Virus record (IMG/VR): IMGVR_UViG_3300034171_000062
Coordinates: 32,001 to 96,000 of that record
DNA length: 64,000 bases
Reading direction: 5' to 3' (one strand)
From: a virus
Lineage: Duplodnaviria; Caudoviricetes
Every line of letters begins with the position of its first letter. Position 1 is the first letter of the stretch. The translations under genes and the position numbers were made by a program. Positions 9,968 to 41,802 of this stretch are shown piece after piece. The notes under the pieces are model-generated. The model was not told the origin of the DNA. It ran no database searches and was given only the letters and a program-made list of their open reading frames with translations.

Positions 9968-10435
9968 ATGGACAAGACAGTACACACCGTGTTCGATTTT
10001 CGAACTGCACTTATGCGTTCACCTGGCAGTTGTCAAATACTTCTGCGGACTGGAGACAAAGGTTTTCAGATCATGCACATGGTTGAAGTCAACCGCGGTG
10101 GACATCCGTCCATAATCCTTGAAGCAATCGGGGTCCCAGATGACCTAGTGTCGCTGGCCACTCTTTCGCCCGGAAACCGTTTTCGTTTTCAAGAAATGCT
10201 TGAAGACGATTTGGAAGTCGTGCAGGTGGACGTAGAACCGGATCACGAACTGATCATGGAAATCCGTCACGTCAGAGAAGGTTGGCATGGCCGCGTTGGC
10301 CTGATGACTGGTGCTGTAGATTGGGACATAGGGCGATACTACGACACACGTGTATTGCCAATGCGCCGCGGTGAAGACCGTGGCCTAAGACCACCAACCG
10401 GTGATCCTATCCCCGAGCGACGCGCTGGACGTTAA
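9968..10435 (+). CDS. hypothetical protein
   Basis: GAGGAG RBS; followed by a terminator. Confidence 0.65.
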   Translation: MDKTVHTVFDFRTALMRSPGSCQILLRTGDKGFQIMHMVEVNRGGHPSIILEAIGVPDDLVSLATLSPGNRFRFQEMLEDDLEVVQVDVEPDHELIMEIRHVREGWHGRVGLMTGAVDWDIGRYYDTRVLPMRRGEDRGLRPPTGDPIPERRAGR

Positions 10436-10450
10436 TCCATCTGGAAATGC

Positions 10451-10477
10451 GGGGAGGGTAACACCTCCCCATTTTTT
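10451..10477 (+). terminator. intrinsic terminator
   Basis: GGGGAGG/CCTCCCC stem plus ATTTTTT. Confidence 0.7.
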
Positions 10478-10512
10478 CGACTCAAACCGTAAAATCATAA
10501 GGAAAGCCTGTA

Positions 10513-10968
10513 ATGTCTGCGATCGTTGAACCCGCAACTGAGACCAGTACGTATGGCACCGCCCCTCCTAAGACCTCGGTAAATAAACCCATTCTCTCAT
10601 GCGACTTCGATGGTGTGATCCACAGTTACACCACTGGATGGCATGGCGCTGATGTGGTGGCCGATGGTCCAGTCGATGGCGCCATGCGATTTTTAACCGA
10701 TGCCTCTGATAAGTTTGAAATCAATATCTATTCTTCCCGTTCCGGACAACCCGGCGGCGTGGCAGCCATGTACGACTACATTGCTGAACACCTACGTCGA
10801 TATTGGGTTGACATGCCAGCCGTTGGCGATAAGGTATTGTCGAAACTCAAGTTTCCTACCGATAAACCCTCGGCCATGGTGATGTTGGACGACCGAGCGG
10901 TGACCTTCACCGGCGTTTTCCCAGAGGTTGACGACCTGTTGGACTTCAAACCCTGGAACAAACGCTAA
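10513..10968 (+). CDS. HAD-superfamily phosphatase-like protein
   Basis: Motif I CDFDGVIHSY, motif II YSSR, KP, motif IV LDDRA. Confidence 0.8.
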   Translation: MSAIVEPATETSTYGTAPPKTSVNKPILSCDFDGVIHSYTTGWHGADVVADGPVDGAMRFLTDASDKFEINIYSSRSGQPGGVAAMYDYIAEHLRRYWVDMPAVGDKVLSKLKFPTDKPSAMVMLDDRAVTFTGVFPEVDDLLDFKPWNKR

Positions 10969-25752: not shown

Positions 25753-26361
25753 TTACCAAGAAAATGTGAGTTCGGCGCAGTTACTGACGCCGTTCAACGT
25801 GACGTTATCTAGTACTTCGTGATATCCGTTACCTTCCCCAAGACCAACGCGACCCACTAAGATGTAGCTGCTTCGAGTGGTCCAATTTAACTTAGCCGTC
25901 GAGCCCCCACAGTACTTTATCCGAGCGACCATATCTGCTGTGTAATTTTCGGCGGCGTGACTGGCCACGATGACGATCACCGCGCCGTCGGCCAACCGAT
26001 CGATGCCGTCGACGAACGCCTGCTGCTGTTGGTCGGCCACATTGACGTCCCAGGTGTCGTATTGTGGGAGGTGAATCGACTTACTCCGGTCGACGTTCAG
26101 TGACCCCGCAAAATTAACTGAATTGTCCCAATCTCCAGCAGATTCGTCCCAAATAAAGAATGTCCACGCCCGCGGCATATTCGGTGAGATGCCCATTCCA
26201 TACTCTTCAACTCGGGCTGGCGGTACATAACTATCTTGGGGATAGGGTTTGGCTCTCACGGTAAATTGACGCGGTCGTCTATAAATAACCTGATTATTTA
26301 GAACCATACGAAGAACATCATCTCCTCCGGCGGTTATTCGTTTAGCTGCCGTTAGTTTCAT
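25753..26361 (-). CDS. ILEI/PANDER (GG-lectin-like) domain protein
   Basis: YDT...AFVDGIDRLADGAVIVIVAS...GG...RSSYILVGRVG pattern. Confidence 0.65.
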   Translation of the reverse strand: MKLTAAKRITAGGDDVLRMVLNNQVIYRRPRQFTVRAKPYPQDSYVPPARVEEYGMGISPNMPRAWTFFIWDESAGDWDNSVNFAGSLNVDRSKSIHLPQYDTWDVNVADQQQQAFVDGIDRLADGAVIVIVASHAAENYTADMVARIKYCGGSTAKLNWTTRSSYILVGRVGLGEGNGYHEVLDNVTLNGVSNCAELTFSW

Positions 26362-26638: not shown

Positions 26639-27394
26639 CTATCGTTTAAAGAGTTTTTCGCCCATCCAGCCGACGGGGTCCCACCGGTGAAACCGAACCG
26701 CGCCGGGTTTGGCATGGTGACTGCCGTGCCAGCAATCGCCTAGAATGAAGGGAAACATAAAGACGCTGTCGTGGGGGGAGTCTGTCTCGACCTTACCCCA
26801 ATTATGGCCCCAAGTGTTGGCTAAGGACTGAAGTTGCCACGTCAGCGCCACCGGCGCCCACACTAAAGCCAAGGCCCATTCGAGAGGGAAGAGTAGGATG
26901 GACCCAAAGAACACAGGGGCATAGATGTGCCAGTAATGAGTGTGGAACCAAACGTGCCACTTTGACCGCAGTAAGCGCCCTGCGTGACGCCCACTGACGG
27001 TGCGAAACGTGTACCCGAGCAGTTGAACCGACAGCCAATGACTGCGCGCTGGGCTGTGTGGGTCCTTAGCCTCTCCCTGATGCTTGTGGTGGGCGTTGTG
27101 TGTCGCCACCCATCCGAGACTACTGCCCTGAAGCGACAGTCCACCTACGAGGGTTAAGGCGACTTCTACGGCCTTTGGTACCGTCACTGCGTTGTGGGTC
27201 AGAACCCGGTGGTACATAAAACTGATGCCCAGTTGACTGATGCCATACCCCAACAATAACGATATTCCTAACAACCCCCACTCGCCCCGCACTATCAAGA
27301 CCACCACCGCTGCGTGACACAATAGAACCATGCCATAGTGACACAGTCGGTTTGCAGGTAGGACCTCTATATTCAACCGTTGTAAAGTACTCAT
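26639..27394 (-). CDS. membrane fatty-acid desaturase (Delta9/DesC-like), copy 5
   Basis: His boxes HRVLTH, HNAHH, HGSHH; DPHSP; TM helices. Confidence 0.9.
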   Translation of the reverse strand: MSTLQRLNIEVLPANRLCHYGMVLLCHAAVVVLIVRGEWGLLGISLLLGYGISQLGISFMYHRVLTHNAVTVPKAVEVALTLVGGLSLQGSSLGWVATHNAHHKHQGEAKDPHSPARSHWLSVQLLGYTFRTVSGRHAGRLLRSKWHVWFHTHYWHIYAPVFFGSILLFPLEWALALVWAPVALTWQLQSLANTWGHNWGKVETDSPHDSVFMFPFILGDCWHGSHHAKPGAVRFHRWDPVGWMGEKLFKR

Positions 27395-33080: not shown

Positions 33081-33110
33081 CGGAATAAAAGGAGACCCGA
33101 AGGTCTCCTA
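33081..33110 (-). terminator. intrinsic terminator ending the desaturase run
   Basis: AGGAGACC-TTCG-GGTCTCCT-TTTATTCCG (- strand). Confidence 0.8.
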
Positions 33111-33920
33111 GGATTTTGTTCCTTGGCGGAGGAGTTCTTGTAGGTCTTTTGGGCGGTCCGGTTGCGGGCGTCTTCGAATCAGTTGAATGAACCACGCAGC
33201 AAAGTCCACCTCGTACCAACGCTCACTGATGTTCCAGCGACTGGGGTCGGCGTGGTGGTTGTTGTGCCAACCGTCACCAACCGTGACTATGTTCACCAAC
33301 CAGCTGTTGCGGCTGTCGTCGTCCGTCTCGTGGTTGCGGTAGCCCCACGTGTGACCGAAGGTGTTAAAGAACCCTTTGACGTGAAACAGCAACGCGGCAG
33401 GGATCGCATATAAGAACAGCGCTGCCTTCCAGTCAACCGCCCACAGTCCAAACGCATACGCTGCCAATATAGGTACGTAGTACTTATGGGTTAATTGATA
33501 CCCACGCGCGCGCACTTCCCGTTTGGCCACTCTTGGGTCAAGAAAGACCTTGCGTTCCATCCATTCGCCGAACCAAGCTTCTCGCCAACCCTGAACAGTA
33601 GGGCTGTGTGAGTCCCGGTTGGTGTCTGCGTACTTGTGGTGTGTGCGGTGTACCAATAGGTTCATCAGTGGTGAAGCGATGGTGCACAGCATACCACACG
33701 TCACTAGAAGGTACCGCCAAGCGGGAGATGTCTCAAACGAGCGGTGGGCTTCCAGTCGATGATACCCCACAGTTACCCCAAAGAACCCGTACACAAAGTA
33801 CGCTAAAAGCATCCACCCCAACCAGTCCCACGTGCCGTGGTAGATAGCCCAGGCGAGTCCTACGGTTGCGGTGAACTGGAGCGCGATCTGCCAGTACTTC
33901 AGCTGCACGTGTGGCTTCAT
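33108..33920 (-). CDS. Delta9-type fatty-acid desaturase, copy 4
   Basis: HRLEAH, HRTHH, GDGWHNNHH. Confidence 0.93.
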   Translation of the reverse strand: MKPHVQLKYWQIALQFTATVGLAWAIYHGTWDWLGWMLLAYFVYGFFGVTVGYHRLEAHRSFETSPAWRYLLVTCGMLCTIASPLMNLLVHRTHHKYADTNRDSHSPTVQGWREAWFGEWMERKVFLDPRVAKREVRARGYQLTHKYYVPILAAYAFGLWAVDWKAALFLYAIPAALLFHVKGFFNTFGHTWGYRNHETDDDSRNSWLVNIVTVGDGWHNNHHADPSRWNISERWYEVDFAAWFIQLIRRRPQPDRPKDLQELLRQGTKS

Positions 33921-34678
33921 GATGTCCTCGGTTTACGGATCAGACGAATGATGACGGCGGGCAAATCCACTTCCCACCATTTATCCCAGTTGTTCCAATC
34001 GTTTGGACGTTGATGGTGGTTGTTGTGATACCCTTCTCCGACAAACAGCCACGCCACCAGTAGCGAATTGGTGGAGGCATCGTCGACGTCGTGGTTGCGG
34101 TATCCGCCGGTGTGGCACCAGGCCGAGGCAAACCCAAAGATCACCCACATCAAGGCACTGGGAAGTGCGTACGCAAACAAGAACAGACGCCAATCGATCA
34201 CCAGGAGAATCAACGCGGTGCCGTAGACGATCTTGAAATAGTTGCGGTGAAAGAATTGAACGTCCTTCTCTCGAGCCAAGTCCCGGATGGATCTGGGTGA
34301 GCACTTCTTCAGATTCCACCCAATAGACAACCAGGCTCGGTAGAACCCCAACAACCGAGGGCTGTGTGGGTCGCCGTCTGTGTCTGGATACATGTGATGC
34401 GTACGGTGCACCATGGTCCAGGTAATAGGCGATCCTAATGACATCATCGAACCACAGTACAACAAGAACCAGCGGATGGGTGTGTAGGTCTCATAACTGC
34501 GATGGGCCACGTATCGGTGAAAGCCGACCGAGTTCCCAAAGACGCTGAGGGTCACGTACACCCCCAGGGTCCACCACAACCACTGCCACTGACCGAACGC
34601 AGTCAGATACGCAATGGCAACCCCTCCGAAGAGGGCGTTAAAAAGATTGAGGCAGTCTAATCTGCGCGCTTCAGTCAT
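33917..34678 (-). CDS. Delta9-type fatty-acid desaturase, copy 3
   Basis: HRYVAH, HRTHH, GEGYHNNHH. Confidence 0.93.
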   Translation of the reverse strand: MTEARRLDCLNLFNALFGGVAIAYLTAFGQWQWLWWTLGVYVTLSVFGNSVGFHRYVAHRSYETYTPIRWFLLYCGSMMSLGSPITWTMVHRTHHMYPDTDGDPHSPRLLGFYRAWLSIGWNLKKCSPRSIRDLAREKDVQFFHRNYFKIVYGTALILLVIDWRLFLFAYALPSALMWVIFGFASAWCHTGGYRNHDVDDASTNSLLVAWLFVGEGYHNNHHQRPNDWNNWDKWWEVDLPAVIIRLIRKPRTS

Positions 34679-34687
34679 GATGGTCTC

Positions 34688-35482
34688 CTACGTCTTGAAT
34701 CGTGGCAACGGATGGTGGCGGTGGTGAATGAGTTTGATGACCTGCGCCGGGATGTCCCACTCCCACCAATTTACCCGAGTGTTCCACCGAGACGGGTGCG
34801 CGTGGTGGTTGTTGTGCCAGCCTTCGCCCATGGTGATCAGGTTCGCGATCCAACTGTTGCGACTGGTGTCGCCCTTGAGATCAAACGTCCGATAGCCGTG
34901 TAGGTGAGGGATGACGATGATGCCGCAGGCGCTGTGCAGCGACAGCACCGCCGGAATCGCATAGACAAAAACCACGCCTTGCCACCCAAGAGTAGCAAAC
35001 AGCGCCACGTTCCACACCGCAATGACGTGGAAGTAGTATTTGTGGGTCCATTTGTAGAACGGGTCTTTACGCAACCGCTTGGAGACTTGCCCGGCTTTCT
35101 TAAACCCTGAGGTGTTCCAAGCCCCAAACCACGCGCGTAAGACCCCAATGCGCTGAGGGCTGTGTGGGTCGTGTTCGTCGTCGGTGTGTATGTGGTGGAT
35201 GCGGTGCACGATCGTCCATGCCATGGGTGACCCCACGGTGGTGACAATGCCACAGAACATCAACACCGCTTCAATGGGTCGGTAGGTCTTAAAGGCCCCA
35301 TGGGCTAAGAACCGATGGAACCCAACGTCGATGCCTAAGATCCCTGTGACCCAATACGTCAGCCAGGCGGTCAGCAACCACAGCCACTGTCCTTCCATCA
35401 CCGCCCAGACGCCCACTGGGATCGCCACGGCGTGCGTCAGTATCTGGAGTAGGCGAACCCCCACGTTGTGCGTTAACTTCAC
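34688..35482 (-). CDS. Delta9-type fatty-acid desaturase, copy 2
   Basis: HRFLAH, HRIHH, GEGWHNNHH. Confidence 0.93.
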   Translation of the reverse strand: MKLTHNVGVRLLQILTHAVAIPVGVWAVMEGQWLWLLTAWLTYWVTGILGIDVGFHRFLAHGAFKTYRPIEAVLMFCGIVTTVGSPMAWTIVHRIHHIHTDDEHDPHSPQRIGVLRAWFGAWNTSGFKKAGQVSKRLRKDPFYKWTHKYYFHVIAVWNVALFATLGWQGVVFVYAIPAVLSLHSACGIIVIPHLHGYRTFDLKGDTSRNSWIANLITMGEGWHNNHHAHPSRWNTRVNWWEWDIPAQVIKLIHHRHHPLPRFKT

Positions 35483-35487
35483 GGTAA

Positions 35488-36246
35488 TTACCCTCTTCGT
35501 TTAATAACCCAAATGAACCAAGCCGTAGGATCGAGTTCCCACCACTTGTGCTGAAAACTGTACCGCCCAGGGTAAGCATGGTGGTTGTTGTGCCAGCCGT
35601 CGCCCACGGTTAAAATATGGGTGACCAGACTGTTCTTAGAATGGTCTTTGGTCTCGTAGTTCCGATAGCCCCATTGATGTGCAAAGATCCCCAACACGTA
35701 GGCGATTAAGAACGCATGCAACGCCGCGGGGAGCACGTACCCCGCCAACACCAAGTCCAACCCACCGAGGACGTAGAGACCCACCACCGCTAACGCGTGT
35801 ATGTAGAAATACCACCGATCCATAAACACCATGATCGGATCTTTCAGCACGTCCTTCATCGCTACCCGACGCCCGTCGTGTTCGAGGTGGTACAGGCAGA
35901 ACAACGCTTTCCAATGCCCCACGACTCGATGGCAATGGGGGTCTTTCTCCGTGTCCGAGTATCGGTGGTGGGCGCGGTGTATCCAGGCCCAACTGATCGG
36001 ACTGCCCGTCAAACACAGCACGCTGAGTATCCCCATTACGAACTCCACCGGGGGGTAGGTCTCATAACTGCGGTGAGAAACCAAGCGGTGCAGATAAGCG
36101 TTGAACCCCACGAGTTGTTGAACGCAGTACACAGCCAATGTTACCCACAGTAAGTCCGGGCGCTCCCAGAGAAGGTAAGCCGTCGCAGGAAAGAACGCCG
36201 CCCAAACGTAGAGTCGGTAGACGTTCATCCGAGGGGTACTATACAT
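35488..36246 (-). CDS. Delta9-type fatty-acid desaturase, copy 1
   Basis: HRLVSH, HRAHH, GDGWHNNHH; start overlaps the ketosynthase stop. Confidence 0.93.
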   Translation of the reverse strand: MYSTPRMNVYRLYVWAAFFPATAYLLWERPDLLWVTLAVYCVQQLVGFNAYLHRLVSHRSYETYPPVEFVMGILSVLCLTGSPISWAWIHRAHHRYSDTEKDPHCHRVVGHWKALFCLYHLEHDGRRVAMKDVLKDPIMVFMDRWYFYIHALAVVGLYVLGGLDLVLAGYVLPAALHAFLIAYVLGIFAHQWGYRNYETKDHSKNSLVTHILTVGDGWHNNHHAYPGRYSFQHKWWELDPTAWFIWVIKRRG

Positions 36247-37456
36247 AGCGAGAAACTCCCAGTACGCAGTTGAGCCCACCAAAACCAAACGCGTTTTTGA
36301 CAAACGCCGTCATGGGTTTTCGAATGGGGGCCTTAGGTAAGTTGATGGGGGGCAAGTCTGGATCGTATTCCAAGTTGCCGTGTGAAACAATGAAACCTTC
36401 TTGCATCATGTACAGACACAGGATCAATTCAACGATGCCACTGGCTGTGACGCTGTGGCCGAGGAGCCGTTTAAGAGCCACCACAGGCACGTCTTTAGAT
36501 CTCTCGCACTCGGCCAACACTTTGGCTTCTATAGCGTCGCCTTTGAGCGTAGAGGTCGCGTGAGCAGAGATAAAGTCCGGACAGATGCCATACCGATGCC
36601 ATAGGGTGTCTAAGACCGACGATAATGAGGCCAGTCCACCTTCGCCGGTGGGGTTGGTTAGGTCGTGTCCATCGGAGTAATCGGCGTACTCCAACGCGAT
36701 GCCGTAGTTGCGTTGCTGGGTCTCGGGGCGTTTAAAATACGCGGCCCTGGATTCCAAGATCACACACCCGGCGCCTTCGCCGACGGTGAAGCCTGCTCGG
36801 TGCGGTGAGAAGGGGACCGAGGCGTGCTCCAAGTTCGGCCCGCGATACAACGCCCGCATGGCATCGAACCCTCCGACAATTTCTTGTAAGACCTTCTCAA
36901 CGCTGACGCAAATGACAACGTCGGCCCGACCTAACTCAATCAGGTCCATGCCCTGAGTCACCACACGGAGGCCGCTGGCACAGGCGTGTTGTACGGTGTG
37001 GATTGGTCCCTTAATCCCCAGAAGGGTGGCTAGAGGACCCGTCACAGCCGTAGGGAGTGACTTTAAGAGATCGAAGGGCGAACTGCGTTTGTCTGGGTTC
37101 ATTAACGACGCATGAGCGTCCATCCCAGTGGCCCCAAACGCTGAAACCAACGCCACCCTCGGCCCTGTCTCCGAATCCCGACACACGGCCTCAGGATCGT
37201 ATCCGGCGTCTTTTAACGCTTTGCGGATAACGTAGTAAGAGAGGTTCAAGGCGTCGTTAGCAATACTCCGGGGGATGTCTGGCGCTAAGAATTGGGTATT
37301 CTCAATGCAAGGTGCGACGGAGGTGGCCTTGACGTGGGGCCAAAGTTCGATCAACGGTTGTATAGTCACGCGTTCCATCTTCAACGCTGAAACGATCTCT
37401 GAATGGTCGGTCCCATACGGTGAGAGAGAGCCGATGCCGGTAATGATTGCAGACAT
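36239..37456 (-). CDS. beta-ketoacyl-ACP synthase (FabB/FabF family)
   Basis: ITGIG, HACASG (catalytic Cys), GEGAG, AHATST..GD, KRLLGHS, NAFGFGG. Confidence 0.92.
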   Translation of the reverse strand: MSAIITGIGSLSPYGTDHSEIVSALKMERVTIQPLIELWPHVKATSVAPCIENTQFLAPDIPRSIANDALNLSYYVIRKALKDAGYDPEAVCRDSETGPRVALVSAFGATGMDAHASLMNPDKRSSPFDLLKSLPTAVTGPLATLLGIKGPIHTVQHACASGLRVVTQGMDLIELGRADVVICVSVEKVLQEIVGGFDAMRALYRGPNLEHASVPFSPHRAGFTVGEGAGCVILESRAAYFKRPETQQRNYGIALEYADYSDGHDLTNPTGEGGLASLSSVLDTLWHRYGICPDFISAHATSTLKGDAIEAKVLAECERSKDVPVVALKRLLGHSVTASGIVELILCLYMMQEGFIVSHGNLEYDPDLPPINLPKAPIRKPMTAFVKNAFGFGGLNCVLGVSRYV

Positions 37457-37572: not shown

Positions 37573-38097
37573 TCACTCTAAAAAGTCGATGATCAATAAG
37601 CCCAGTTGGGACCCATTACTGCCCCCCACTAAGGTGAGAAACTTTCCACTCAGTCGAACGATCTCTTTCACGCCCACCGACTCGTCGTTGATCAGCACGT
37701 CGTTCTCCGCCACCGCCAAGTACCCGGTCTGGGTCAACTCGTAGGTCTCCCCCGGTGCCAGCACTATCTTCTCAGCGGTGATGACGCGGTGTTTGGCGTT
37801 GCCGGTGCTCAAACAAAAGCCAACGGTGCCGTCTTCCAGCGCTTCCACTTCGGCCCACCGAGGGTTGGCCTTTGTAGGCACGGGGTCCGAGGCCCACAGA
37901 GTGTACTCGTTAAACGTGTTGCGGGTATGGGTACCGCCTTGCACAATAAACCGAGCTTCTTTAACGGGGATGAAATCGTCGGCCATGGTTTCTTGGTAGT
38001 CGGGTTTTCTACCTAGAATGAACTTCTCACCTTTGTCCACGTAGAACCAGGCGCAGGCTACGCCTTCGTCTTTTAGTCGATGCACTCGAGTTCGCAT
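37573..38097 (-). CDS. hypothetical beta-rich (possibly cupin-like) protein
   Basis: AAGGA RBS; part of the cluster operon. Confidence 0.65.
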   Translation of the reverse strand: MRTRVHRLKDEGVACAWFYVDKGEKFILGRKPDYQETMADDFIPVKEARFIVQGGTHTRNTFNEYTLWASDPVPTKANPRWAEVEALEDGTVGFCLSTGNAKHRVITAEKIVLAPGETYELTQTGYLAVAENDVLINDESVGVKEIVRLSGKFLTLVGGSNGSQLGLLIIDFLE

Positions 38098-39238: not shown

Positions 39239-39657
39239 TCTGCCTCCGCCATGCACTCGGCTCGAAAATACGCAACGGTGTAGTCAACCCACTGGCCCGT
39301 TAAAGGAATGTTTTCCACCCCCCCAAAGGTATCAAGGATGGCGTCGTACGTGGTTGGGTCTTGTGAGTAAGGCACGAAATATTCGTCGTTGCCGTACAGC
39401 AGATCCGGGTCGTCCAACACCTCGAAGAACGCTTCGTTGAAGTGCTCCCACAAGAGACGCGCGTAGATCAACGCCACCGCATACGACTTCGCCGGATAGA
39501 CCAACACGTCTTGAGGGTCGGTGAAGTAAGCCACGGCCGGCACCACTAAGTCGTCGTGGTCCACCACGATGTCAAAGTTCTCCAACGCGTCCGTGTGTTC
39601 GGGCGTCATCAGGTGATACAGTTGCTGGTTGAGTTTCCAGGTTTTTTTGTGACTCAT
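39205..39657 (-). CDS. hypothetical cluster protein
   Basis: ATGA-coupled to a radical SAM gene; YPAKSY motif. Confidence 0.7.
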   Translation of the reverse strand: MSHKKTWKLNQQLYHLMTPEHTDALENFDIVVDHDDLVVPAVAYFTDPQDVLVYPAKSYAVALIYARLLWEHFNEAFFEVLDDPDLLYGNDEYFVPYSQDPTTYDAILDTFGGVENIPLTGQWVDYTVAYFRAECMAEAECFKTSNLGEQ

Positions 39658-40742
39658 GCGCTCCGCCTCACCCAATTAAATTCACTTCTCAAGTCGCGGG
39701 CGGTGGAAATGCACCGATCGGCCTTGGTGATCTCCATCACTTTCTGCACGCCCCGTACCGCGCACTTGGCAACGAACTCACAGCCGCCACAGACGCCGTT
39801 GGACTGGGCTAACGTGATACACTCGAACATAGACGCTTCTTCTTGAGTAAAGATGTTCTCGAAGGTCCAGGGTCCGGCAACCCGATGTTCCGGTTCGAAT
39901 GAGGAAAACGCTTCTACGATGAACGGGGGGACAAACATCTCTCCGTTGCGATACACCACGTCCCAATCCTCACCCTCGTTGGTTTGCAGTTCCACAATTT
40001 CAAAGTGCTCGCCCTTCTCGTTGGCCGCGATGCGAGACTGAACCAGTAAGTGGTTCAAGTGGTGGAGGCTGGTTAGAAACCGATCCCGATTGGCTGGGTC
40101 TCGCAAACTTTCACGCCCATGGGGTAAAATGATGTCACTGTGGCTGGTGGGATGAAGATCGATGCGGTACGCCCGGGTCATGATGTCACTGGTCATGGTA
40201 AACCCACGTTTGGCGTCGTTGGCTATCGACTCTTCAAAGTTCATCACGCTGTAGACCCGAGTGATCTTCACCGTCTTCAAACAACTTTCAAAATACGCCA
40301 CCCGTTTGCAAAGCTTATCGACGTAGGACGGGTTGTCGATGTGTCTTACTTCAAAGGGCACGGTAAACTTCAACAACCCATTGGGAATCATCGCCTCCAT
40401 CTGTTGGGCCAGCTTTTGATAAATGAGGGGGTTGGGATCAAGGAACGCGCAGTTCAAAGTCGTCTTCATGAACCGCCGGGCAATGGACAAAACTCTGGGG
40501 TGTTCCAGAACGGCGTCTCTATTGTCAGAACTCAAAATGTCCGTGGGTCCTATGATGAAGTTGAGCATCTCCAGTTCTGCCACCTCGAAGCTGTCAAGCA
40601 TAGCGTCGATCCGGTCAAATTCTTCTTCAGTAGGAAGAACGTTGTCTTCTTTCTCCACCATACAGCCAGAGCAGTTGTGACGACATCCGGAGGCGATCTC
40701 CATAGTGAAGTCGATTAACTTATTGATTTGGGATATGTGCAT
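39654..40742 (-). CDS. radical SAM-like protein (atypical; no GGE motif)
   Basis: CRHNCSGC (Cx3Cx2C); GPTD in place of GGE; C-terminal CGGCEFVAKC. Confidence 0.75.
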   Translation of the reverse strand: MHISQINKLIDFTMEIASGCRHNCSGCMVEKEDNVLPTEEEFDRIDAMLDSFEVAELEMLNFIIGPTDILSSDNRDAVLEHPRVLSIARRFMKTTLNCAFLDPNPLIYQKLAQQMEAMIPNGLLKFTVPFEVRHIDNPSYVDKLCKRVAYFESCLKTVKITRVYSVMNFEESIANDAKRGFTMTSDIMTRAYRIDLHPTSHSDIILPHGRESLRDPANRDRFLTSLHHLNHLLVQSRIAANEKGEHFEIVELQTNEGEDWDVVYRNGEMFVPPFIVEAFSSFEPEHRVAGPWTFENIFTQEEASMFECITLAQSNGVCGGCEFVAKCAVRGVQKVMEITKADRCISTARDLRSEFNWVRRSA

Positions 40743-40746
40743 GTGC

Positions 40747-41802
40747 TCACCAGTTGCATTTGTGACCGAGTTTGCCAAGTATGGATAAACACCGATCCGT
40801 CTCCAGTAATCGCTGAACACGGTGAACGCCCCGCGTAGCACATTTACTGACAAATCGACATCCGGAACAGTCATTAGACTGCGACGCGCGCGTAATCGAT
40901 TCGAAGAAGGTGTCTTGATCCGAACGTTGTATTGAATCCAATGTCCAAGGCTTCTCAAATTTAAAGTCGGGGTGGAAGACAGCAATCGGACTGTTAATAA
41001 ACGGTGCGATGTAAAGATCCCCATTCCGATAGGCCAAATGGTAGTCGGCCCCAACGTGAGCGCTCAAGTCGTCGACTGTGAACTCGTATCCGGCGTCCAC
41101 TTGATTGGCAAAGGTTTGGTTCTGTTTTAAGATGGCGCGCAAGAACTCATCGCGATCTTCCTTTACGCTGAGATCCCGGCGGCCGTAGTGAAACACGAAC
41201 GTGGTGGTGTCCGATTTCTCAAACAACTCGATGTGTCGGGTGGCGTAAAGAACCTCTTCATTGATCAGGCCGTTATCAAGCATGGACTCGGTCATGTTGA
41301 CGATGGCCGTCACGCTGGCGATTGTGACTGTTTCTAAGTGTTGATTGAGCCAAGCAATCCGCCCTCGGAGTTTCTCCAAGTAGGCGACGTTGCGGTGGTG
41401 TTTCAATTCAACGGGCACCAAGAACTCTACGTTCAGACCGGGCATAAACGCGTCCAACTCTTTAGCGAATTCCACGTAAGCATCGGCCTTGGGATTCAAG
41501 AACGAACAGTTAAAGACCACCGATTTAAACCCAGTAACTAGATCCCGTATGATGGGATGAGTCAATACGTCGGTCCGGTTGCTGGCCGACATGACGTCCA
41601 CCGGCGCAAACTCCATCCACGACATCTCCCACCCGCGCTCACGCACGTCGTCCACCACGTCCCGTAAGGCGTGGAGGTCGTCTTCGGTGTATGGGGTTAC
41701 ACCTGTGGTGTTAACGCTGCACCCTGAACACCCGTAGTCGCAGTCTTTCAGTAGTTCCAGTGCCAGGTTACCAATGTTGTCCCCTCGGATCATAATCGTC
41801 AT
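40747..41802 (-). CDS. radical SAM-like protein (atypical; paralog of the previous gene)
   Basis: CDYGCSGC; APVD in place of GGE; C-terminal CSGCRFVSKC. Confidence 0.75.
   Translation of the reverse strand: MTIMIRGDNIGNLALELLKDCDYGCSGCSVNTTGVTPYTEDDLHALRDVVDDVRERGWEMSWMEFAPVDVMSASNRTDVLTHPIIRDLVTGFKSVVFNCSFLNPKADAYVEFAKELDAFMPGLNVEFLVPVELKHHRNVAYLEKLRGRIAWLNQHLETVTIASVTAIVNMTESMLDNGLINEEVLYATRHIELFEKSDTTTFVFHYGRRDLSVKEDRDEFLRAILKQNQTFANQVDAGYEFTVDDLSAHVGADYHLAYRNGDLYIAPFINSPIAVFHPDFKFEKPWTLDSIQRSDQDTFFESITRASQSNDCSGCRFVSKCATRGVHRVQRLLETDRCLSILGKLGHKCNW

Follow-up and report, generated by a model that had tools for sequence, protein, structure and literature searches.

In this study, we found that a 64,000-nucleotide stretch of phage DNA, hereafter the window (bases 32001-96000 of the 170,557-bp IMG/VR virus record IMGVR_UViG_3300034171_000062), contains five intact, divergent Delta9-type membrane fatty acid desaturase genes, four of which form a tandem array directly behind a gene for a FabB/FabF-like beta-ketoacyl synthase (ketosynthase). 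Since the 170,557 bp represent 62% of the genome by CheckV completeness, the phage is of jumbo size. The desaturase genes are intact, under selection, orthologous across related phages, members of a viral clade, and coupled to the ketosynthase; the one that was modelled, Des4, has the fold of the stearoyl-CoA desaturase SCD1, and the parts required for a polyyne pathway are absent from the window record and from a complete relative. The reading we favour, with a probability of roughly 0.55, is a host-dependent phage cassette for lipid unsaturation, whose substrates, products, and benefit to the phage we infer. The genes in question and the element that follows the array are listed below.

33108..33920, minus strand: Des1, a 270-aa Delta9-family membrane desaturase and the final gene of the operon (PF00487, E 1e-15; boxes HRLEAH, HRTHH, and HNNHH)
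33917..34678, minus strand: Des2, a 253-aa desaturase (PF00487, E 8e-16; boxes HRYVAH, HRTHH, and HNNHH)
34688..35482, minus strand: Des3, a 264-aa desaturase with a GTG start (PF00487, E 4e-16; SCD1 structure 4ymk, E 1.4e-13)
35488..36246, minus strand: Des4, a 252-aa desaturase counted from the ATG used by its orthologs (PF00487, E 3e-17)
26639..27394, minus strand: Des5, a 251-aa divergent desaturase (boxes HRVLTH, HNAHH, and HGSHH)
36239..37456, minus strand: FabB/FabF-like beta-ketoacyl synthase, 405 aa from the start shared by its orthologs (PF00109 and PF02801), directly upstream of Des4
33090..33109, minus strand: terminator-like GC hairpin plus T-run (8-bp stem with 5 GC pairs, tail TTTATT), from a consensus scan only

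Des1 to Des4 are four head-to-tail open reading frames (ORFs) that fill positions 33108-36246, as an earlier note on this DNA had correctly described; the fifth copy counted in that note, Des5, lies outside this range, 5.7 kb downstream of the array and past an S74 tail fibre gene. The spacing within the array is tight, with a 4-nt overlap between the Des2 stop and the Des1 start, a gap of 9 nt between Des3 and Des2, and one of 5 nt between Des4 and Des3. The longest ORF of Des4 begins at a TTG at 36303, ahead of the ATG shared by the orthologs. This ATG overlaps the ketosynthase stop by 8 nt, and because of this overlap the array is predicted to be translationally coupled to the ketosynthase. 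At the other end, the terminator-like hairpin lies directly 3' of the Des1 stop, before the S74 fibre gene, which suggests that the array closes the transcription unit of a long same-strand run extending from radical S-adenosylmethionine (radical-SAM) genes to the desaturases. A family profile search of the whole 170.6-kb record returned exactly five desaturase copies.

Des1 to Des4 match the Pfam FA_desaturase family (PF00487) at E 3e-17 to 1e-15, with 59-64 bits against a curated cut-off of 29.7 bits. Des5 has no Pfam match at E 0.01; it was found by a profile of its paralogs and by an NCBIfam DesA-family match (8e-8) that is far under the cut-off of that model. Pairwise identity is 34-43% among Des1 to Des4 and 26-29% between Des5 and the others. 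All five proteins retain the three histidine boxes that the earlier note had read in them (HRxxxH, H(R/N)xHH, and HxxHH), together with a DPH motif. The third box is HNNHH in Des1 to Des4, a pattern found four times at the DNA level against 0.02 occurrences expected by chance, and Des5 has HNAHH as its second and HGSHH as its third box. Besides the eight box histidines, all five proteins keep an extra histidine aligned to the ninth metal ligand of SCD1. This residue (H190 in Des1 numbering; the 'NxxxH' histidine of SCD1, on the fourth transmembrane helix) is invariant in all 27 orthologs and throughout an 88-sequence alignment, and the full set of nine ligands is invariant in 26 of the 27 sequences when the five orthogroups are aligned. 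The sole ligand change among them is in the Des2 ortholog of a related metagenome contig (L123:11529-12311), where box 3 reads QNNHH instead of HNNHH; a Gln at this first His site of box 3 is usual in front-end desaturases. Structure modelling of the desaturases covered Des4. Its AlphaFold2 model, made with the 88-sequence alignment as input, has a predicted local distance difference test score (pLDDT) of 95.1, a predicted template-modelling score (pTM) of 0.92, and four long transmembrane helices, and it resembles the SCD1 of mouse and human (6wf2, 4ymk, and 4zyo) with template-modelling (TM) scores of 0.78-0.81, a root-mean-square deviation of 3.2 A, and a Foldseek E of 1e-9. Judged by sequence, then, Des1 to Des5 are members of the Delta9 family (SCD1/DesC-type) of membrane desaturases, a membership that does not itself fix regiospecificity at C9. 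Columns that are fixed inside each orthogroup yet differ between orthogroups amount to three positions only (45, 76, and 163 in Des1 numbering), with five or six sequences per group, which is too few for a prediction of specificity.

The desaturases and the ketosynthase are shared with several related phages. Two IMG/VR contigs, L005 (73 kb) and L006 (222 kb), retain the entire neighbourhood in the same order; L005 contains five tandem desaturases and Des5, and L006 contains three tandem desaturases, a Des1 relocated behind the fibre gene, and Des5. Two neighbouring genes of L005 (L005:9155-9973 and 9986-10798) are both of Des1 type, each ~52% identical to Des1 of the window, and by their sequences represent an extra duplication that raises L005 to six desaturases. 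The metagenome contigs L123 (81 kb) and L160 (98 kb) have a compact order of S74 fibre, small genes, ketosynthase, Des4, Des3, Des1, Des2, a 175-aa protein, Des5, and muramidase, and in L159 (135 kb) and L161 (10 kb) the ketosynthase is followed by one desaturase whose best match is Des4. Adjacency of ketosynthase and Des4 is kept in every related contig examined (7/7). Since the single desaturase of L159 and L161 is of Des4 type, the ketosynthase-Des4 pair is the constant core of an array whose size ranges from 1 to 6 among relatives.

Each of the five desaturases has an orthogroup of its own, with members from four or five related phages and a support of 99 in the Shimodaira-Hasegawa-like approximate likelihood-ratio test (SH-aLRT). 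The Des1 orthogroup is represented in L005 (two copies), L006, L123, and L160, and the separate Des2 orthogroup is its sister. Des3 is the most conserved paralog, with 75-79% identity to its orthologs in L005 and L006; it clusters with 14 other viral desaturases and is the paralog nearest to the widespread phage desaturases. Des5 has orthologs in L005, L006, L123, and L160 at 52-76% identity, and these form a deep clade of their own. Mean identity is 45-65% within orthogroups versus 22-39% between them. Most ortholog pairs have reached saturation at synonymous positions; for those whose synonymous rate (dS) could be estimated, the ratio of nonsynonymous to synonymous rates (dN/dS) is 0.09-0.22, which indicates that each paralog is maintained by purifying selection. 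The orthogroups and these ratios bear out the suggestion of the earlier note, made from the kept His boxes and the divergence, that the copies have retained functions.

The trees combined about 47-49 desaturases from viruses with 79 homologs from cellular genomes, of which 22 entered the IQ-TREE run. These cellular sequences, identified by scanning 185,579 species genomes, are at most 38% identical to Des1 and belong mainly to cyanobacteria, acidobacteria, planctomycetes, and Vampirovibrionales. As JamB-type references we used five desaturases from Moorena genomes that have an acyl-AMP ligase and a carrier protein as neighbours, as confirmed by Pfam. FastTree was run on 135 rows and IQ-TREE, under a site-heterogeneous model, on 77 rows, and the root was not inferred. 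In both trees, one viral clade (SH-aLRT 96) inside the DesC-type radiation, with enzymes of cyanobacteria, acidobacteria, and planctomycetes around it, contains 47 of the 49 viral sequences, including all five paralogs of the window; the other two lie on a long branch outside this clade. The JamB-type enzymes form their own clade, outside a branch with a support of 99. FastTree and IQ-TREE also agree on the five Des clades and on the placement of Des1, Des2, Des3, and Des5. The comparison with DesC and JamB-type enzymes that the earlier note had proposed therefore places the phage copies with the former and apart from the latter. Because each Des clade holds one gene per related phage, the paralogs are older than this group of phages, and they look as though they evolved in viruses rather than being captured repeatedly from hosts, within an unrooted tree that leaves the transfer undirected.

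The best matches of the ketosynthase in the Protein Data Bank (PDB) are FabB structures (E 1e-40), to which the catalytic Cys, both His, the Lys, and the GFGG loop align. The corresponding motifs HACASG, SAHATST, K..GHS, and FGFGG are also invariant in four phage orthologs. Its scores are under the NCBIfam equivalog cut-offs for both fabF (180 vs 494 bits) and FabB (160 vs 630 bits), so that it is best classified as a diverged subfamily, ortholog of neither. About 17 metagenome clusters are closely related to it (43-56% identity), and after these come cellular FabF proteins at no more than 33%. These comparisons assign it to a phage-only family that stands upstream of a desaturase in every contig examined. 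A single-sequence scan of viral contigs for further ketosynthases found none, and a profile scan found only the two contigs already known. The layout has a counterpart outside this group. An ENA contig of 348,509 bp (L164:8882-13038) contains a 354-aa ketosynthase with a tandem array of four desaturases behind it, in each of which the His boxes are complete; its ketosynthase is 26% identical to that of the window, and genes for PhoH, a clamp loader, and Cpn10 are found nearby. Since this is an unrelated huge phage, the combination of a ketosynthase and a desaturase array recurs in giant phages. Other viral records of jumbo size contain two or three desaturases each. A second ENA contig (L125:9962-19651; 182,881 bp) has three desaturases scattered among radical-SAM genes, QueC, and a short-chain dehydrogenase, and it encodes a 72-aa protein with a weak PP-binding match, a possible phage carrier protein linked to desaturases.

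The rest of a lipid pathway was searched for in the window record and, because that record is incomplete, the key searches were repeated on the record of L006 (G008; IMG/VR 3300032135_000001, 222,493 bp), which is complete (direct terminal repeat, CheckV 100%) and has the same module. An acyl-AMP ligase (PF00501) gave no match at E<=1 in the 170-kb window record and none at E<=0.1 in the complete L006 record and four other phage records. Acyl carrier protein (ACP; PF00550) and 2Fe-2S ferredoxin (Fer2) were not matched in either the window record or the L006 record, and neither were thioesterase (PF00975) and rubredoxin (PF00301), very divergent forms of which could evade the profiles. Searches of the window record for a short-chain reductase (KR) and a PlsC acyltransferase were also negative. 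The only hint of a phage electron donor is a 72-aa ORF about 36.5 kb past the window end (G000:C1:132560-132658, plus strand) with a sub-threshold cytochrome-b5 match (E 0.027, 12 bits), probably a chance match. Given phage records that lack genes for a carrier protein, a reductase, or an electron donor, the predicted cassette must rely on host ACP, malonyl-ACP, reductases, and electron donors. As to the L006 record itself, its terminal repeat is exactly 127 bp at both ends; as 127 is a common assembler k-mer length, the repeat probably reflects ends of a circular contig that overlap from the assembly, and not a true terminal repeat of the phage.

Desaturase sets of this size have been reported before. 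Zhong et al. 2020 described 12 viral fatty acid desaturase (FAD) genes in four viral populations of Arctic cryopeg brine (PMC7300359), and two jumbo phages from this brine contain "five copies each" (Zhong et al. 2020/2023; PMC7300359, PMC10405475). As a possible origin of the copies, the authors put forward acquisition from different hosts or over an extended period (PMC7300359). In the later work, the two genomes were extended to 222 and 230 kb, one of them being the complete vOTU43_CB18_222366, and Pseudomonas was predicted as host (Zhong et al. 2023; PMC10405475). After subtraction of one repeat, L006 has 222,366 unique bases, the number in the vOTU name, and five desaturases, each paired with one paralog of the window at an SH-aLRT of 99. 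L006 is almost certainly the published vOTU43_CB18_222366, an identification that comes from the matching 222,366 figure, not from sequence comparison. Thus, the five-gene desaturase set is already known, and since it was published for a related Arctic-brine phage, the window phage is a further example rather than a novel type. The term "ketoacyl" is absent from the text of both papers, and the ketosynthase link appears to be unreported in them (PMC7300359, PMC10405475). It also seems not to have been reported that the coupled ketosynthase is phage-only, that a single viral clade comprises five old orthogroups, that array size varies while the ketosynthase-Des4 core stays constant, or that an unrelated giant phage repeats the layout. 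When the DNA of the region was compared with deposited phages, no match was obtained, and protein searches of 50,697 deposited phage genomes gave three records only, with one desaturase copy each. A 2026 review of jumbo phages makes no mention of desaturases or fatty acids, and a literature search found no paper pairing "jumbo phage" with a phage desaturase.

In the cassette that we favour, the soluble FabB/F-type ketosynthase and the five SCD1/DesC-type di-iron desaturases would be made in the infected cell, and the desaturases would insert into the host inner membrane. There they may act on host acyl chains, either bound to phospholipids, as for DesC, or carried as host acyl-ACP or acyl-CoA, while the ketosynthase would extend host acyl-ACP, and the host would supply the carrier protein, malonyl-ACP, reductases, and electron donors. 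Since each paralog is old and conserved independently of the rest, the five enzymes probably have different specificities, whether for chain length, double-bond position, sn-position, or lipid class. Combined with chain extension, their activities could raise or diversify unsaturation, and with it membrane fluidity, during infection. The origin of the published relatives from subzero brine, for which their authors proposed a fluidity-helper role (PMC7300359, PMC10405475), is consistent with such a cassette. Several points weigh on the other side. The function of the viral-clade desaturases is assigned by similarity, and five paralogs seem beyond the needs of fluidity tuning. With an identity of only about 30% to cellular FabF/B, the ketosynthase may have an unusual substrate. 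The cassette lies within a tail-fibre and lysis module, beside radical-SAM and 2-oxoglutarate (2OG) oxygenase genes, and it could serve a different, dedicated product. In addition, the published relatives showed only low-level transcription of their FAD genes in situ (PMC10405475), and the brine habitat is that of those relatives.

The wider region (24.9-62.7 kb) is a module of tail-fibre, baseplate, and endolysin genes. Upstream of the ketosynthase there is a conserved companion gene:

37573..38097, minus strand: a soluble bicupin/pirin-like protein of the family 'x193', 174 aa (AlphaFold2 pLDDT 90.8)

Its homologs adjoin the module at differing positions (L005:5114-5641, L006:12661-13185, L123:12286-12816, and L160:14250-14777), and distant paralogs of 'x193' stand directly upstream of the ketosynthase in L123 and L160. 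Foldseek matches it to AerE, BacB, ChrR, and DUF861 cupins (E 7e-6 to 2e-4, TM 0.5-0.6), and its three nearest feature-based clusters in a protein atlas are all viral. The protein has no conserved metal-binding His, and the matches, being at the fold level only, do not indicate a function. Further upstream are two 2OG-Fe(II) oxygenases, two paralogous unknown proteins, and several radical-SAM proteins. The two unknown proteins (39654-41054 and 40747-41802, minus strand) are adjacent, have no Pfam match, and are apparent paralogs in that both match PHROG 31457; as their longest ORFs overlap by about 300 nt, the protein at 39654-41054 probably starts later. Between Des5 and the muramidase gene, a 202-aa protein (25753-26361, minus strand) has a sub-threshold ILEI/PANDER-like match (E 5.5e-5, 24 bits vs a cut-off of 27).

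As an alternative to a cassette for unsaturation in general, the paralogs may act sequentially on one chain that is extended by the ketosynthase, yielding a specific di- or polyunsaturated, possibly conjugated product, such as a signal, a toxin, or a special lipid for assembly or lysis, instead of bulk fluidity. Five separately conserved paralogs whose gene order is fixed, and which follow a strongly diverged ketosynthase private to these phages, would fit this, as would the cupin-like companion that moves with the module, the same architecture having arisen in the unrelated 348-kb phage, and the 182-kb phage contig in which desaturases are joined to a short-chain reductase and a weak carrier-protein match. 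Within the Delta9 family, insect enzymes have acquired Delta11, Delta12, and Delta14 specificities as well as conjugase activity. However, the cassette is without its own carrier protein, release enzyme, or acyltransferase, some relatives make do with the ketosynthase and one desaturase, array size varies, and polyunsaturated fatty acids of bacteria are normally made by other desaturase subfamilies. We therefore regard such a pathway as a tentative possibility. A bolder form of it, in which the private ketosynthase and neofunctionalised desaturases make di- or polyunsaturated fatty acids beyond the ability of the host, for a virus-specific lipid needed late in assembly or lysis, and in which this arose at least twice in unrelated giant phages, is in our judgement rather unlikely.

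In contrast, the five proteins may be redundant isoenzymes with one Delta9 monoene as their common product, differing in the host, temperature, lipid head group, or electron donor to which they are tuned, so that dosage or host range, not chemical diversity, would account for their number. Cyanobacterial DesC1 and DesC2 offer a precedent, as both are Delta9 enzymes that differ only in sn-position, and all five phage proteins have a Delta9-type box signature. Furthermore, 11 of the 12 published viral FADs (vFADs) were assigned as Delta9 by motif and Phyre2 modelling (PMC7300359). Yet the paralogs are only 22-43% identical and each is conserved alone across phages with saturated synonymous sites, whereas copies kept purely for dosage should tend to homogenise or disappear; redundancy is thus a doubtful explanation.

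A third possibility is that the desaturases and the ketosynthase belong to a radical-SAM/2OG cluster that builds a lipid moiety on a fibre or another virion protein. The array is indeed the 3' end of a same-strand run that starts with radical-SAM and 2OG genes, fibre genes flank it, and this neighbourhood is kept in L005, L006, and L159. The module of L123, L160, and L161, however, stands beside endolysin and without radical-SAM or 2OG genes, so the linkage is not obligatory. The negative PlsC search of the window record also counts against decoration, we know of no protein substrates for integral-membrane desaturases, and borders of fibre and lysis genes are common insertion sites for accessory genes. 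Taken together, these make decoration of fibres very improbable.

The earlier note had left two products open, a remodelled membrane or acyl lipid and an acetylenic chain. The first agrees with the DesC/SCD1-type, host-dependent character of the enzymes. The second, a polyyne or alkyne pathway of the jamaicamide, caryoynencin, or protegencin type with the desaturases as acetylenases, was rejected as scarcely credible: bacterial clusters of this kind do combine three desaturases, and the QNNHH box of the L123 Des2 ortholog has the Gln variant listed for polyyne desaturases (PMC9828172, PMC8406139), but the required fatty acyl-AMP ligase (FAAL), dedicated ACP, thioesterase, and rubredoxin were not found in the window record or the complete relative, and the Moorena JamB-type desaturases, with their FAAL-desaturase-ACP context, lie outside the branch with an SH-aLRT of 99. 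Finally, the lipid vesicle of nucleus-forming phages forms at genome injection, ahead of phage gene expression. A link between the cassette and that vesicle (PMC10541120; bioRxiv 10.1101/2024.03.24.586471) is pure speculation.

Phage desaturases have usually been seen as single helper genes derived from hosts. In the window phage and its relatives, they constitute a virus-specific family of long standing, whose five members are each conserved in their own right and are linked to a phage-only ketosynthase. If the products of the paralogs differ, giant phages would rewrite host lipid chemistry far more specifically than the term "fluidity helper" suggests, and the cassette would be a compact source of new desaturase specificities. 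What this analysis, all of it computational, adds is the coupling to the ketosynthase, the division into orthogroups, and the rejection of the polyyne model.

Among known enzymes, the phage desaturases resemble most closely DesC of cyanobacteria and SCD1 of mammals (PDB 4ymk, 4zyo, and 6wf2), with which they share the fold, four transmembrane helices, nine His ligands, and the HRxxxH/HRxHH/HNxHH signature. They are shorter, at about 250 aa, and identity is 30-38% to the best bacterial homologs of Des1 and 24% to SCD1. Likewise, the ketosynthase has the thiolase-fold domains and catalytic residues of E. coli FabB and FabF (PDB 1fj4 and 2gfw), albeit at about 30% identity and with scores far beneath the equivalog cut-offs. 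Like the phage array, the JamB-type and polyyne triads are sets of several membrane desaturases encoded together (PMC9828172, PMC8406139). Unlike the phage cassette, which has none of these parts, they work on chains bound to a dedicated ACP that FAAL charges, and they require a thioesterase and, in most cases, rubredoxin. The vFADs of cyanophages, likewise phage auxiliary genes, are of the same Delta9-type family of membrane desaturases; experiments described in the abstract of Roitman et al. 2017 (PMC5776448) showed that they desaturate C16 chains of lipids at the Delta9 position. In contrast to the window, they are single auxiliary metabolic genes of T4-like cyanophages, and that abstract makes no link to a ketosynthase. 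The nearest known system is the five-copy vFAD phage of cryopeg brine (L006), which has the same five orthologous desaturases with the ketosynthase alongside them in its locus. The window phage is a more distant relative of it, with orthologs 50-75% identical and a 4+1 array in place of 3+1+1. The two accounts differ on the origin of the copies: whereas Zhong et al. considered different hosts or a long time, our trees point to one viral clade with five old orthogroups.

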